Positions 578 through 14,982 of a DNA stretch of 14,982 bases are shown here, in pieces; within the stretch, counting starts at the first letter, position 1, and every line of letters starts with the position of its first letter. The notes beneath the pieces are model-generated. The model worked only from the letters and a program-made list of their open reading frames with translations. It had not been told where the DNA came from and made no database searches. This DNA comes from a virus (lineage: Duplodnaviria > Heunggongvirae > Uroviricota > Caudoviricetes). The stretch lies in the IMG/VR virus record IMGVR_UViG_2547132281_000001; one strand, written 5' to 3'. Position numbers and translations under genes: made by a program.

Positions 578-635
578 AAAAAGGGCGGCAGAGCAGTCAC
601 GGAGTAAAACTGATACCGCCAAACGTCACCAGAAA
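578..635 (-). ncRNA. dicF: DicF small RNA (ftsZ/manX-targeting sRNA of the dicB operon)
   Basis: Reverse complement of 578..635 reads TTTCTGGTGACGTTTGGCGGTATCAGTTTTACTCCGTGACTGCTCTGCCGCCCTTTTT, which matches the DicF sequence as I remember it, including the 3' GC stem and U-run. Positioned between ydfC and dicB as in Qin. Confidence 0.85.
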
Positions 636-4402: not shown

Positions 4403-4793
4403 CCCTCGTAATCAGGTTAATTTTCTTTATGAGCCATCGGAAAGACCATATTGCCATCACGCTTCTGTCCGGGTTGACGAAAAAAAGTGCGTCAGGTCCG
4501 CTATAAAATCTGCGGTGCAGTTGTGGAGCCATTTGACTGGATGCTCTCTGTGGCGAAAAGAGAAACCAGACTGGCAGATGATGTAAGGCTCTTGCGCCAG
4601 GAGGAACGGGAAAGGCGAAAAAAATACAGAAAAGCTAATTCAGATTGAGCGTAACGGGAAAGCGCGGATACGCAGGGTGACAAAATCCAGAACTGAATAA
4701 TTAAATTTAGCACTGTTAAAAATTTAATCCTTAACCGGAGGGATTTCTGCACCCTCAGAACATCAGGAGGCCGCCCGAAAGGGCGGTAGTTAA

Positions 4794-4928
4794 ATGCGAA
4801 AGTTTAAAATAATTATTGAAACGGGAATAGCCGGTGGAGATTTCGAGGATGAATTCGAAGTGGATAATGATGCGACGCCTGATGAAATACATGACGAAGC
4901 AAAAGATATTTTCTTTAACTACTGCAAT
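4794..4928 (+). pseudogene. ORF truncated after codon 45 by the IS1 insertion
   Basis: Track ORF 4794..5009 is native only to ...DIFFNYCN; from 4929 the reading frame runs into the IS1 terminal repeat. Acidic N-terminus MRKFKIIIETGIAGGDFEDEFEVDNDATPDEIHDEAKDIFFNYCN. Confidence 0.45.
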
Positions 4929-4943
4929 GGTAATGACTCCAAC

Positions 4944-5447
4944 TTATTGATAGTGTTTTATGTTCAGATAATGCCCGATGACTTTGTCATGCAGCTCCAC
5001 CGATTTTGAGAACGACAGCGACTTCCGTCCCAGCCGTGCCAGGTGCTGCCTCAGATTCAGGTTATGCCGCTCAATTCGCTGCGTATATCGCTTGCTGATT
5101 ACGTGCAGCTTTCCCTTCAGGCGGGATTCATACAGCGGCCAGCCATCCGTCATCCATATCACCACGTCAAAGGGTGACAGCAGGCTCATAAGACGCCCCA
5201 GCGTCGCCATCGTGCGTTCACCGAATACGTGCGCAACAACCGTCTTCCGGAGCCTGTCATACGAGTAAAACAGCCAGCGCTGGCGCGATTTAGCCCCGAC
5301 ATAGCCCCACTGTTCGTCCATTTCCGCGCAGACGATGACGTCACTGCCCGGCTGTATGCGCGAGGTTACCGACTGCGGCCTGAGTTTTTTAAGTGACGTA
5401 AAATCGTGTTGAGGCCAACGCCCATAATGCGGGCAGTTGTCCGGCAT
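4944..5447 (-). CDS. insB: IS1 InsB reading frame (transposase C-terminal part, expressed as InsAB' by frameshift)
   Basis: 167-aa track [61 protein letters not shown]... is canonical IS1 InsB. Confidence 0.95.
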
Positions 5448-5641
5448 CCAACGCCATTCATGGCCATATCAATGATTTTCTGGTGCGTACCGGGTTGAGA
5501 AGCGGTGTAAGTGAACTGCAGTTGCCATGTTTTACGGCAGTGAGAGCAGAGATAGCGCTGATGTCCGGCGGTGCTTTTGCCGTTACGCACCCCCCCGTCA
5601 GTAGCTGAACAGGAGGGACAGCTGATAGAAACAGAAGCCAC
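5366..5641 (-). CDS. insA: IS1 InsA (91 aa)
   Basis: Track [94 protein letters not shown] is canonical InsA. Confidence 0.95.
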
Positions 5642-5818
5642 TGGAGCACCTCAAAAACACCATCATACACTAAATCAGTAAGTTGGCAGCATCACCGAAT
5701 ATTTAGACTAAAGAGTTTGTAACGCTATGTAAGTGATTTTTTCTGGTTTAGATATTTATATGTCCGGCCAAATTGAGGTGTGTTTAAATGTAATTGCACA
5801 TTGATTGTAGGAGGAATA

Positions 5819-5998
5819 ATGAAAAACGCATTGCAGTTTTTGTTTGTTGCGTTCTGGTTGTTCGTATCATGTATGCCCATCATCTTCACAGCAAGGTATA
5901 TAGAAAAAGTTGATGTTTTGATATTAATATTTGGATATATAAATGCCCTTTTTTTAGGGGTGTTCATGGCGGTCATGTGCATTGAATACTGGCGGTAA
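5819..5998 (+). CDS. Small hydrophobic protein (59 aa, two predicted TM helices)
   Basis: Strong SD AGGAGG 6 nt before ATG 5819. MKNALQFLFVAFWLFVSCMPIIFTARYIEKVDVLILIFGYINALFLGVFMAVMCIEYWR. Visibly AT-rich context. Confidence 0.5.
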   Translation: MKNALQFLFVAFWLFVSCMPIIFTARYIEKVDVLILIFGYINALFLGVFMAVMCIEYWR

Positions 5999-6256
5999 AT
6001 ACAGCGAACGCCATTGGTTTAGTTGGATATTTACTGTGCCGGACAAAAACGGTTTGCGGGGAAATCTTAGTTAAATAGAATGACTGCGGGTGCTTGAGGC
6101 TATCTGTCTCAGGCATGAACACCAAAAGGCAGATAGAGAAAAGCCCCAGTTAACATTACGCGTCCTGCAAGACGCTTAACATTAATCTGAGGCCATATCT
6201 ATGCGACACATAGAGATTAGCCTCTTACGGACCGAAAGGTCAAGGAGAAGCAGGCT

Positions 6257-6391
6257 ATGAAGCAGCAAAAGGCGATGTTAATCGCCCTGATCGTCATCTG
6301 TTTAACCGTCATAGTGACGGCACTGGTAACGAGGAAAGACCTCTGCGAGGTGGAGGTCGCTGTCTTCACAGCTTACGAACCTGAGGAGTAA
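6257..6391 (+). CDS. hokD: Hok-family membrane toxin, HokD/RelF-like but 44 aa
   Basis: MKQQKAMLIALIVICLTVIVTALVTRKDLCEVEVAVFTAYEPEE. N-terminal 31 and C-terminal 13 residues match recalled HokD. SD AAGGAGAAG upstream. A 19-codon upstream ORF ends in ATGA overlap with the start. Confidence 0.8.
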   Translation: MKQQKAMLIALIVICLTVIVTALVTRKDLCEVEVAVFTAYEPEE

Positions 6392-6461
6392 AAGACCTGG
6401 CGAGGGAGAAATCCCTCGCCACCTCTGATGTGGCAGGCATCCTCAACGCACCCGCACTTAA

Positions 6462-6486
6462 CCCGCTTCGGCGGGTTTTTGTTTTT
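6462..6486 (+). terminator. Rho-independent terminator after hok
   Basis: Hairpin CCCGC-TTCG-GCGGG followed by TTTTTGTTTTT. Preceded by a second hairpin CGAGGGA-GAAA-TCCCTCG around 6400-6418. Confidence 0.6.
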
Positions 6487-6607
6487 ATTTTCAACGCATT
6501 TGAAGTTCTGGACGGTGCCGGAATAGAATCAAAAATACTTAAGTAGCGCGCAGGGATAAGAGGGATGGTCCCTTAAAGGGGAGAGCTAATTATCCGGAAG
6601 GATTCTG

Positions 6608-6859
6608 ATGATGAACAGCGAAGAACTGAGTAAAATTTTTTGTGAAGATGGCCTCTATGCTGTGTGCGTTGAAAATGGAAATATTGTTAGTCATTACCGC
6701 ATTGTGTGTTTGCAAAAAAATGGGGCTGCGTTAATTAATTTTGTGGATGCCCGAGTGACGGACGGATTTATCTTGCGCGACGGTGAGTTTGTCACTTCAT
6801 TACAGGCATTGAAAGAGATCGGAATAAAAGCTGGCTTTTCTGCTTTTTCAGAAGAATAA
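6608..6859 (+). CDS. Hypothetical 83-aa protein (same length and position as rem in Qin)
   Basis: SD GGAAGGA before ATG. MMNSEELSKIFCEDGLYAVCVENGNIVSHYRIVCLQKNGAALINFVDARVTDGFILRDGEFVTSLQALKEIGIKAGFSAFSEE. Identification rests on synteny and length only. Confidence 0.5.
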   Translation: MMNSEELSKIFCEDGLYAVCVENGNIVSHYRIVCLQKNGAALINFVDARVTDGFILRDGEFVTSLQALKEIGIKAGFSAFSEE

Positions 6860-6925: not shown

Positions 6926-7204
6926 ATGGCGCACGATACCAAATTACACAATTCTGATGATTCTGCCGTCTTTGCCAGCAGGCACGGGCGGCGTTCCCGC
7001 ACTTTCAAATCTGACTGGTACCAGCATCCCCCATGTACTGAAGAACAAGCTGAATGGCTAATTCAGTGCTACCGCAGACACGGATACGAGATTAAGAAAG
7101 CCCTCAGCCTCGATTATCGTCACTGGATAATCTCCGTCAGGCTTCCTTACTCTGAACGCCCACCGCGTCCGTCCCGCACATTCCAGCAACGCATCTGGAG
7201 GTAA
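6926..7204 (+). CDS. Hypothetical protein (92 aa)
   Basis: SD GGAGAAAA before ATG 6926. Stop abuts the GTG start of the ydfU-like gene. No family recognised. Confidence 0.45.
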   Translation: MAHDTKLHNSDDSAVFASRHGRRSRTFKSDWYQHPPCTEEQAEWLIQCYRRHGYEIKKALSLDYRHWIISVRLPYSERPPRPSRTFQQRIWR

Positions 7205-7205
7205 C

Positions 7206-8255
7206 GTGCGGGTATTACTTCGACCTGTTCTGGTACCGGAACTCGGGCTGGTGATCGTTAAGCCGGGCCGTGAATCCATGCCGGTATTCCACAATACCCG
7301 GGTACTGGTGGAGCCGGAACCGAAAAGCATGCGTAATCTGCCGTCCGGGGTCGTTCCTGCCGTTCGCCAGCCGCTGGTGGAAGACAAAACATTGCTGCCG
7401 TTTTTCAGTAACGCACGGGTGATTCGTGCTGCTGGTGGTGCTGGTGCATTGTCTGACTGGCTGTTGCGCCATATTAAATCCTGCCAGTGGCCACACGGCG
7501 ATTATCACCACAGTGAAACCGTCATTCACCGTTATGGTACCGGCGCAATGGTGTTGTGCTGGCACTGCGACAACCAGTTGCGTGACCAGACCTCCGAATC
7601 ACTTGAGCAACTTGCTCACCAAAACTTGTCAGCATGGATGATTGACGTCATTCGTCACGCAATGAATGGCACACAGGAGCGGGAATTATCTCTGGCTGAA
7701 TTATCCTGGTGGGCGGTCCGCAATCAGGTGGCGGACGCGCTACCGGAAGCGGTATTACGTCGTTCGCTGGGGTTGCGTGCGGAAAAAATCCGCTCAATGT
7801 ACCGTGAAAGCGACATCGTACCGGGAGAGCAGACCGCCACCAGCATACTGAAACAGCGCACAAAAAATCTTGCGCCGCTGCCTCACGCCCACCAGCAACA
7901 GAACCCACCACAGGAAAAGACGGTGGTCAGCATTGCCGTTGATCCTGAGTCTCCGGAATCTTTCATGAAACGACCTAAACGTCGCCGCTGGGTTAACGAG
8001 AAATATACACGCTGGGTGAAGACACAGCCGTGTGCGTGTTGTGGTAAGCCAGCCGACGATCCCCATCACCTGATTGGTCATGGTCAGGGCGGAATGGGGA
8101 CAAAATCTCACGATATTTTCACGCTACCGCTGTGTCGGGAGCATCACAACGAGCTTCATGCGGATCCGCTGGCGTTCGAAGAAAAGCATGGTTCTCAGGT
8201 TGATTTAATTTTTCGTTTTCTTGATCACGCCTTTGCAACTGGCGTGCTTGGGTAA
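7206..8255 (+). CDS. ydfU: YdfU-like DUF968 protein with C-terminal Cys/His (HNH-like) motif, GTG start
   Basis: 349 aa, same length as Qin YdfU. SD GGAGG before GTG 7206. C-terminus CACCGKPADDPHHLIGHGQGG...LCREHHNELH. Confidence 0.75.
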   Translation: MRVLLRPVLVPELGLVIVKPGRESMPVFHNTRVLVEPEPKSMRNLPSGVVPAVRQPLVEDKTLLPFFSNARVIRAAGGAGALSDWLLRHIKSCQWPHGDYHHSETVIHRYGTGAMVLCWHCDNQLRDQTSESLEQLAHQNLSAWMIDVIRHAMNGTQERELSLAELSWWAVRNQVADALPEAVLRRSLGLRAEKIRSMYRESDIVPGEQTATSILKQRTKNLAPLPHAHQQQNPPQEKTVVSIAVDPESPESFMKRPKRRRWVNEKYTRWVKTQPCACCGKPADDPHHLIGHGQGGMGTKSHDIFTLPLCREHHNELHADPLAFEEKHGSQVDLIFRFLDHAFATGVLG

Positions 8256-9603: not shown

Positions 9604-9679
9604 GGCCCTTTAGCTCAGTGGTGAGAGCGAGCGACTCATAATCGCCAGGTCGCTGGTTCAAATCCAGTACAGCGCGCCA
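9604..9679 (+). tRNA. tRNA-like sequence with CAU anticodon (Ile2/Met type) but non-pairing acceptor stem; possibly degenerate
   Basis: D arm (GCTC/GAGC), anticodon loop CTCATAA, T arm GCTGG-TTCAAAT-CCAGT and encoded 3' GCCA are all present. Acceptor 5' strand GGCCCTT pairs with 3' ACAGCGC at only 3 of 7 positions. Confidence 0.45.
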
Positions 9680-10143: not shown

Positions 10144-10617
10144 ATACATATCTGGATTATCACCTGTTACGGTAAAAAGTTATTGCTTACTGTTTTTGTG
10201 AATGGCATTGCAGCAGCCGGATAATGTCAGTGCTGGCTGACGGTGTGCTGGTGGCGGGTGTGGTGGTTATTGCTTTCCCGTTGCTGAAAAAGAAAACGCC
10301 AGACTGTTAGCCGGGTATCAGTTAGCGGGAGAAATTTTTAAATACTTCACAATTCAGGCGGTTGACTGTTGTCTGGTTTGCGGGGAGTTTGTTAAAAGAA
10401 ACTGGCATGGTGAATCCCCCTGTGCGGAGGGGCAATCAGCGAGTAGGTATATGGGATAATCGCGGATTCAGGTGCTGGTACTGAATTCACCGGGAGGCAC
10501 CCGGCACCATGCACTTCAATAGATTCTCTCCACATTATGGATATTCTTTCAGAATATCCCACGCAGACTTTGTGTAAATGTTAACAAATGTGCGTTTTAT
10601 TTGATCTGATTCGCTGT

Positions 10618-13458: not shown

Positions 13459-13818
13459 ATTAATATTAAATCGGATTATTTTTAGCGCTGAATGTGAAAT
13501 TTAAATAAAAAGGACTCTTCCATGAGTCAAAATCCTTGAAATCTTAAGGGTAAGATAAAAGGTCATTAGACAGAATGACACGTTTTATTAATAAATAAAG
13601 CTATTGTTTCATTCGTGTGTTTTTCTTTACAAAAGTAATCCTTGCTATGGTTGGTTAATCATGCGTTAATGGTGTTCTGGTTTGTTACAAAATTATCTGA
13701 AGCAGTCATTGTTATAATTTTATTATTTGTACCTCTTGAGATTTCCTTGTTGGTTTTTCTCTCTGATATTTTTTTTCGGACCATTCTGCCCAAGGGCTAA
13801 CTTCTTCAAAAGGTAATA

Positions 13819-14034
13819 ATGATGTCTAACAAAATGACTGGTTTAGTGAAATGGTTTAACCCTGAAAAAGGTTTTGGTTTCATCACGCCGAAAGATGGTA
13901 GCAAAGATGTGTTTGTGCATTTCTCAGCTATTCAGAGCAACGATTTCAAAACGTTAACTGAGAATCAGGAAGTCGAATTTGGTATTGAGAACGGACCTAA
14001 AGGCCCTGCAGCTGTTCATGTAGTGACACTTTGA
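13819..14034 (+). CDS. cspI: Cold-shock protein CspA family (CspI-like)
   Basis: [71 protein letters not shown]; RNP motifs KGFGFI and VFVHF present. Preceded by about 360 bp of AT-rich leader. Start could be the second ATG at 13822. Confidence 0.85.
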
Positions 14035-14044
14035 GGTAGAAAAT

Positions 14045-14233
14045 ATTACAAACCATATTCACTTTAGATGCCCGTGTTGCCATGGTTCTCAGTATAGAAC
14101 ATCATCTTTTGATGTTTCTGACAGAAATCCTTTCGGGGCAAAATGTATCTTTTGTAAATCAATGATGATTACATTTGATAATATTTCACAATACTTAAAT
14201 GTTAGCCATCTGTCGTTAGATTTAAGAAAGTGA
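14045..14233 (+). pseudogene. Zinc-ribbon-like small ORF lacking a canonical start codon
   Basis: Open frame ...RCPCCHGSQYRTSSFDVSDRNPFGAKCIFCKSMMITFDNISQYLNVSHLSLDLRK* with CxxC..CxxC. Between the upstream in-frame stop and the motif there is no ATG/GTG/TTG, only ATT at 14045 and 14057. Start coordinate is nominal. Confidence 0.35.
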
Positions 14234-14387: not shown

Positions 14388-14789
14388 GTGGGAACCAAAG
14401 TGTCAGATATGCAGAAAAATGTGACTCCCGGCAGGCGAAAAGGCTGCCCTAATTATCCTCCCGAATTTAAACAGCAGCTCGTTGCTGCCTCCTGGGAACC
14501 CGGGATATCCATCTCAAAACTTGCTCTTGAAAATGGCATTAACGCCAATCTGTTGTTCAAATGGCGACAACAATGGCGCGAGGGAAAGCTGCTATTACCT
14601 TCTTCAGAGAGCCCCCAGCTACTTCCTGTGACTCTCGATGCAGCTGCCGAACAGCCAGAATCGCTCGCAGAGGACCCGGAAACCCTCAGTATCAGCTGTG
14701 AGGTAACGTTCCGGCACGGGACGCTCCGCTTCAATGGCAATGTCAGCGAAAAGCTCCTGACTCTGCTGATACAGGAACTGAAGCGATGA
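14388..14789 (+). CDS. tnpA: IS66-family accessory protein TnpA (orf1)
   Basis: 133-aa track ORF; GTG at 14388 or ATG at 14409 (MQKNVTPGRRKGCPNYPPEFKQQLVAASWEPGISISKLALENGINANLLFKWRQQWREGKL...). Stop overlaps the tnpB start. Confidence 0.75.
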   Translation: MGTKVSDMQKNVTPGRRKGCPNYPPEFKQQLVAASWEPGISISKLALENGINANLLFKWRQQWREGKLLLPSSESPQLLPVTLDAAAEQPESLAEDPETLSISCEVTFRHGTLRFNGNVSEKLLTLLIQELKR

Positions 14790-14982
14790 TCCCGTTACCT
14801 TCCGGGACCAAAATTTGGCTGGTTGCCGGTATCACCGATATGAGAAATGGCTTCAACGGCCTGGCTGCGAAAGTACAAACGGCGCTGAAAGACGATCCCA
14901 TGTCCGGCCATGTTTTCATTTTCCGGGGCCGCAGCGGCAGTCAGGTTAAACTGCTGTGGTCCACCGGTGACGGACTGTGCCT
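14786..14982 (+). CDS. tnpB: IS66-family TnpB (orf2), 5' part only
   Basis: Hand translation MIPLPSGTKIWLVAGITDMRNGFNGLAAKVQTALKDDPMSGHVFIFRGRSGSQVKLLWSTGDGLC... matches the conserved IS66 TnpB N-terminus. Runs off the window end. Confidence 0.8.
   Translation, partial: MIPLPSGTKIWLVAGITDMRNGFNGLAAKVQTALKDDPMSGHVFIFRGRSGSQVKLLWSTGDGLC

Follow-up and report, generated by a model that had tools for sequence, protein, structure and literature searches.

How does a complete IS1 element come to lie within a prophage between two flanks that share no target-site duplication, and what has become of the DNA around it? IS1 makes duplications of 8–9 bp and uses replicative transposition within the chromosome (PMC12428005). 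In general, missing duplications are put down to adjacent deletion or to recombination between two IS copies (PMC11708052). The locus is part of a stretch of 14,982 nucleotides, referred to here as the window. The window comes from a Qin-type lambdoid E. coli prophage in which IS1 replaces approximately 0.58 kb of accessory genes between the replication/DUF977 genes and sok/hokD; measured on the nearest relative the missing segment is 577 bp, and on other relatives it reaches 727 bp.

The dicB-DicF-dicA-dicC immunity region and the sok/hokD-rem-ydfU-Q late-control region are present in the same order as in Qin, as judged from Rfam matches to DicF and sok, Pfam matches on the genes of two draft contigs (L007 and L008) and the annotation of colinear relatives. 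The relBE genes, which lie upstream of hokD in K-12, are absent from the window. The best phage record in a phage collection covers 76% of the window. The following RNA features were placed by an Rfam/ARAGORN scan:

583-634, minus strand: DicF sRNA
6088-6259, plus strand: sok antitoxin RNA
9605-9679, plus strand: phage tRNA-Met (CAT)
10376-10566, plus strand: sRNA STnc100
13664-14080, plus strand: cspA-type 5′ UTR thermoregulator, with a cold-shock-domain gene at 13819-14034

Near the end of the window there is an ORF with a transposase HTH_Tnp_1 domain (14388-14789), and the last 300 bp (14676-14982) match the tnpA-tnpB region of the IS66-like ISEc22 element in L005 with 80% identity on the opposite strand. 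By these features, another IS is probably located at the right end. The draft contig L007 leaves the window at ~13571 and enters a different transposase gene (L007 beyond 13086). To the left of IS1, at 4485-4488, the window differs from L007 by a substitution and a 2-bp indel inside a ~107-aa hypothetical gene (6475-6798 in the prophage of E. coli PEC1011, L001). This gene region holds just a 53-aa ORF in the window (4487-4648), which suggests that the gene is probably frameshifted.

The anatomy of the element is given by the following features:

4929..5696, minus strand: complete IS1A-like insertion sequence of 768 bp, delimited from the sequence itself
4929-4951: IRR-type end of IS1
5674-5696: IRL-type end of IS1
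5366-5641, minus strand: insA, 91 aa, with a GTG start and an open frame
4944-5447, minus strand: insB′ frame, open
5384-5390, minus strand: A6C frameshift motif

All features tested place the element in the IS1 family, with the duplication as the one exception, for which the deletion described below accounts. Besides the expected length of ~768 bp, it has the typical ~23-bp imperfect terminal repeats of the GGTGATGCTGCCAACTTACTGAT type, which read GGTAATGACTCCAACTTATTGAT at one end and ATCAGTAAGTTGGCAGCATCACC at the other and agree at 18 of the first 23 positions. In IS1 elements, the insA and insB′ frames are joined by a -1 frameshift at an A6C motif; here both frames are open and the motif is present, and for the identical copy in L007, the Pfam domains Zn_ribbon_InsA, HTH_Tnp_IS1 and DDE_Tnp_IS1 are on record. 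The element is 99.5-99.6% identical to annotated IS1A copies; three SNPs are private to it, and its variants form no mosaic. One of these SNPs presumably gives a Val-to-Gly change in InsA relative to the standard IS1 sequence.

At both boundaries of the element, the adjoining 9 bp were compared with each other and with relatives:

4920..4928: left junction flank TACTGCAAT, 9 bp, followed in relatives by TAA/TAC TCATATCACG... and not by the right flank
5697..5705: right junction flank GAATATTTA, 9 bp, preceded in relatives by ...GTTTTACGAT

The two flanks are identical at only two of nine positions and are thus unrelated. The ends of IS1 were searched for direct repeats of 7-14 bp, with each boundary allowed to move as far as 5 bp, and none was found, so that the 8-9 bp duplication expected of a simple insertion is lacking. 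This is a real anomaly, because eight IS1 copies that other E. coli genomes carry in this region have perfect duplications of 8-9 bp. The missing duplication does not argue against the identity of the element as IS1, as it is expected if a deletion came after the insertion. The sequence-only reading had described an IS1 with unrelated flanks that cuts an ORF after codon 45, and this observation is correct in every detail: the renewed search for an 8-9 bp direct repeat brought none to light, and the ORF is interrupted exactly where it was said to be. The range 4794-5720 used in that reading comprises the truncated ORF plus IS1, whereas the element proper spans 4929-5696. The interrupted gene is the following:

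4794..4928, plus strand: first 45 codons of a DUF7167-family phage gene (Pfam DUF7167, E = 2.2e-10), with its ATG at 4794

The remnant reads on into IS1 for 26 codons, which makes an ORF of 71 aa with its stop at 5009, while the intact homologues in L002, L003 and L013 have 60 aa. In the prophages of PEC1011 and RCAD0514, a TAC-to-TAA change at codon 46 (L001 7027-7029; L010 2140-2277) shortens the DUF7167 ORF to 45 aa, so that it ends exactly at window position 4928/4929, where IS1 starts. That this nonsense end and the start of IS1 coincide is probably fortuitous.

IS1 is a multicopy element, and an assembler might collapse two IS1 copies flanking a 0.58-kb segment into one. Such an artefact could find some support in two drafts (L008 and L009) that have the left junction in common with the window, as their contigs end at or shortly beyond this junction, in IS1. 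Nevertheless, an independently assembled 13.5-kb draft contig (L007, LRLR01000123), which is 99.8% identical to the window over 13 kb, spans both junctions with an identical IS1. At the level of assemblies, the check proposed for the two junctions returned the same structure. Moreover, the 71-aa fusion ORF already exists as an E. coli protein (WP_001224666.1) on six contigs, the longest of which, at 4.94 Mb, suggests a finished chromosome. Its carriers include GCA_001910905.1, GCA_001912305.1 and GCA_002458215.1, and in the 4.94-Mb record the protein is WNT90376.1. The rearrangement is therefore already in public E. coli records, and an assembly artefact is highly improbable.

To reconstruct the uninterrupted locus, flanks and junctions were searched in 5,426 complete E. 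coli RefSeq genomes. Both flanks are common prophage DNA, the best match to either being at most 99.1% identical in these genomes. The nearest relative is the prophage of E. coli PEC1011 (L001), with 99.4% identity over 3.7 kb up to window position 4928 on the left side and 97.4% over 5.4 kb from 5697 on at the right side. In this IS-free prophage the last base of the left flank is at 7026 and the first of the right flank at 7604, leaving a gap of 577 bp; in MMC-J-0105 (L002) the flanks are likewise colinear, with 727 bp between them. With a query of the two flanks joined, both flanks were located at a single locus in 746 complete E. coli genomes. Among the 60 matches listed, none has contiguous flanks: each falls into at least two pieces, with ~594 extra bp. 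Related genomes in which the same flanks are contiguous apart from a simple insertion, as opposed to a deletion, were thus sought and not found among the matches listed.

In the window, IS1 is intact, the duplication is absent and the DNA that lies between the flanks of the relatives, in the same order and orientation, is missing. Because the flanks are colinear yet 577-727 bp apart in IS-free relatives, the locus points to an IS1-associated deletion of some kind rather than to a simple insertion, which we consider very likely (roughly 93%). This bears out the deletion that had been suggested from the missing duplication and the cut ORF.

The relatives also define what was lost, although the size and content of the deletion are given by these relatives and not by the true ancestor. 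Their gene order is DUF977, small ORFs, DUF7167 (60 aa), a 58-aa gene, a ~171-aa gene, an AT-rich spacer of about 560 bp, sok/hokD and rem. By comparison, the window lacks the last 15 codons of DUF7167, the 58-aa gene and the ~171-aa gene; the comparison with IS1-free flanks that had been called for thus yields a loss of 577-727 bp with the 3′ end of DUF7167 and two small genes. In the ~171-aa gene, the right junction of IS1 comes 2 nt before the TGA stop codon ends. The three affected genes fall into the PHROG families phrog_1997, phrog_519 and phrog_660 (the latter containing the ~171-aa gene), all of unknown function, and the ~171-aa gene is already a frameshifted pseudogene in PEC1011.

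To the right of IS1, the remaining part of the intergenic region is found:

5697..6087, plus strand: AT-rich spacer leading to sok/hokD, which in L001 and L002 joins the upstream genes without a break

The right flank had been described as AT-rich and possibly of different origin. The first part of this description holds, with a GC content of 34% over 5697-5996 against 46% for the whole window. The second part does not, as the spacer is a normal continuation of the locus: it follows directly 3′ of the deleted genes in the IS-free relatives aligned, and its first 300 bp share 98-99% identity with PEC1011, a level close to that of the left flank. Since identity to PEC1011 is equally high up to both junctions, there is no change of ancestry at IS1, and a chimera of two prophages joined at IS1 was rejected on the same profile (identity per 100 bp), which is unchanged at the junction. 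Dips in identity to PEC1011 occur further right, in hok/sok and at 6.9-7.1 kb.

These data also bear on a simple insertion whose duplication has decayed, or an IS1-IS1 chimera of two prophages with a foreign right flank. The AT-richness of that flank would suit such an origin, as would the fact that the best relative of the left flank has only 93.9% identity over the first 1.5 kb to the right. Against this, the flanks are adjacent in no relative examined and match at two of nine bases, the dips in identity to PEC1011 lie beyond the first 300 bp, and AT-rich DNA is what follows the deleted genes in the IS-free relatives aligned. Of the explanations considered here, this one is the least credible.

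The spacer holds a 59-aa strongly hydrophobic ORF (5819-5998), 123 bp right of IS1, with a good Shine–Dalgarno sequence (GGAGGAATAATG). Neither Pfam nor PHROG has a match for it, and the RefSeq relatives leave it unannotated; three IS1 insertions of other genomes land inside it.

By synteny with Qin, it had been proposed that relBE was lost exactly at the IS1 junction. This part of the proposal had to be given up. The Qin-type prophages that bear relBE (L005, L006 and L014) carry it in a 3.27-kb ISNCY′-ydfW-flxA-ydfV-relB-relE module, located between the matches to window positions 5912-6258 and 6243-6686, i.e., at window ~6243-6258. This position is ~550 bp right of IS1 and adjoins sok/hokD, and the closest IS-free relatives likewise lack the module, as do hundreds of IS-free relatives in all. 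The absence of relBE is a mosaic difference between prophages that is unrelated to IS1. The two segments bordering the module overlap by 16 bp inside the sok/hok leader. Besides this, hokD itself (6257-6391) has a 21-bp in-frame deletion between GAGGT repeats, with the deletion point after 6351. Its product has 44 aa and lacks the seven residues that follow ...DLCEV, while the 99.8%-identical L007 encodes the intact protein of 51 aa; by its sequence, the Hok toxin may be inactivated in the window strain.

Different routes can lead from an ordinary insertion to the present structure. The adjacent deletion by a resident IS1 is the one that we somewhat favour. In the first step, IS1 would have inserted at one of the two present junctions, making the usual 9-bp duplication. 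Secondly, in an intramolecular replicative transposition, one IS1 end would have attacked a nearby site on the same chromosome. The resulting adjacent deletion would remove the intervening DNA together with one copy of the duplication, while IS1 is kept. We infer this order of events, as well as a transpositional rather than a homologous-recombination route. IS1-mediated replicative deletions are named in the title of a study (Turlan and Chandler, 1995) that is cited in PMC12428005.

A second route consists of two IS1 insertions in the same orientation, ~0.6 kb apart, at TACTGCAAT and GAATATTTA, each with its own duplication, followed by homologous recombination between the two copies. The end products of both routes are identical, so that the sequence by itself does not decide between them. 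In favour of two copies, the region attracts IS1, with seven different insertion sites, each with a 9-bp duplication, within ~940 bp of related prophages, and the direct IS1 pair that strain PI7 carries 1.4 kb apart in the same region represents the required precondition. In mutation-accumulation lines, moreover, IS1A tends to hop locally: 5 insertions landed no more than 1 kb away from a resident copy, where 0.5 would be expected, and nearby direct IS copies, 1-3 kb from each other, often give rise to deletions (PMC5009759). On the other hand, this route needs three events against two for adjacent deletion, and because fewer events are needed the latter was ranked first. There is no SNP mosaic in IS1 that would betray two parents, although identical parents would leave none; indeed, the comparison with nine other IS1A/IS1B copies returned only the three private SNPs and is uninformative on recombination. 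Finally, no genome among the 5,426 complete ones has IS1 at either exact site. Recombination between two copies is thus a serious but less probable route.

The adjacent deletion by a resident IS1 predicts a precursor, i.e., an IS1 copy flanked by a 9-bp duplication of precisely TACTGCAAT or GAATATTTA. None was found in the 5,426 complete E. coli genomes, and a synthetic precursor-junction query against the same genomes did not retrieve one either. The only full-coverage match of this query, in EC24, turned out to be a Rac prophage with another duplication-free IS1. Other junction matches that seemed contiguous were discarded as well, as they have IS1 15-36 bp away with 9-bp duplications of its own, or a divergent IS1 at a distance of 6 bp that connects to rspB.

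The missing precursor is also compatible with a one-step event, in which a new IS1 copy arrives and a deletion is made together, without a resident IS1 and without any duplication. An arrival of this type has been proposed for some IS5 and IS481 movements, and one study reports duplication-free IS movements at the centre of deletions that were hard to assign to adjacent deletion or recombination (PMC11708052). However, each of the 14 events that combined an IS with a deletion in the long-term evolution lines, all of them involving IS150, had a preceding insertion, and none of the one-step type is reported for IS1 in the same study (PMC11708052). As the absence of a precursor from a limited genome set is weak evidence, we regard a one-step origin as very unlikely.

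Related prophages carry many further IS1 insertions in this region. Within ~940 bp (L001 6890-7827, corresponding to window ~4790-5930), seven different IS1 sites with perfect 9-bp duplications were found (loci L003-L006, L010, L011 and L013). One of these is 10 bp from the left junction of the window, and another is 27 bp from the right junction. An eighth insertion in the region, with an 8-bp duplication, lies nearer rem. All IS1 copies found are oriented like that of the window; the search joined same-strand pieces only, so that no bias is read from this.

In six further loci, representing five distinct events, an IS1 without duplication joins the region to unrelated DNA:

exonuclease gene: partner DNA in L012 and L017
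rspB: partner DNA in L014, with a divergent IS1 ending 6 bp from the right junction
trkG: partner DNA in L015
autotransporter gene: partner DNA in L016
kil of Rac: partner DNA in L018

Duplication-free IS1 events thus recur in this prophage region, and the exact junctions of the window are common to none of these six loci. In E. coli TO6 (L014 3001-3768), an IS1 with 92.7% identity is joined on its far side to rspB and lies 6 bp left of the right junction of the window. This is an independent and much larger IS1-bounded deletion, which removed the left half of Qin and stops very close to the right junction of the window. In the draft L008, the prophage integrase lies ~0.2 kb from a fragment of a zinc-type alcohol dehydrogenase gene, which is possibly rspB, as in L014.

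The stretch with the accessory genes and the region upstream of sok may act as a hot spot for IS1, through which prophages are eroded again and again. A bolder view combines such a hot spot, with nested IS1-bounded deletions eroding Qin/Rac-type prophages, with an origin of the window element in a single transposition-plus-deletion step that had no resident precursor. If true, IS1 would join IS5 and IS481, for which duplication-free 'IS-del' events have recently been proposed; we consider this combination to be very unlikely.

Regardless of the route, the event truncated DUF7167 and removed two small accessory phage genes of unknown function. IS1 is known to exert polarity on transcription. 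Because of this property, the early rightward transcription toward Q is probably blocked by the element, and this would further the decay of the prophage toward a cryptic state. The rearrangement itself follows the textbook pattern of an IS1 deletion in a Qin-type prophage and is, as such, already known and ordinary. Its value lies mostly in annotation, as it explains the missing duplication, defines the genes that were lost and corrects the idea that relBE was removed by IS1. More generally, it is one more case of insertion sequences eroding a resident prophage, in a Qin/Rac-type stretch that repeatedly gathers IS1 insertions as well as IS1-bounded deletions.

Compared to known systems, the window element has its length of 768 bp, terminal repeats, reading frames and A6C motif in common with IS1 (IS1A type) of Escherichia coli and Shigella, from which it differs by the lack of an 8-9 bp duplication and by its three private SNPs. 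The adjacent (replicative) deletions mediated by IS1, as described for the classical gal-region cases and named in the title of Turlan and Chandler (1995), cited in PMC12428005, have intact IS1 ends, lose the neighbouring DNA, bear no duplication and keep the orientation of the flanks, all of which applies to the window. In contrast to those deletions, the event in the window is known from its end product alone, and the deletion is small (~0.6 kb). The deletions that result when nearby direct IS copies recombine, once local hopping has placed them there (PMC5009759), resemble the window in their short interval, the IS1A-type element and the IS1-rich region, although no two-copy intermediate was found at the window sites. 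Lastly, the Qin prophage of E. coli K-12 and its fuller relatives have a backbone in common with the window, which runs ydfD-dicB-DicF-ydfA-dicA-dicC-YdaT ... sok/hokD-rem-DUF968(ydfU)-RusA-Q-tRNA-lysis genes-csp. The relBE-carrying prophages of this type (L005, L006 and L014) hold ISNCY′-ydfW-flxA-ydfV-relBE beside hokD, unlike the window. The window in turn has kept the O-like, DUF977 and DUF7167 genes, which we take to be absent from the Qin prophage of K-12.
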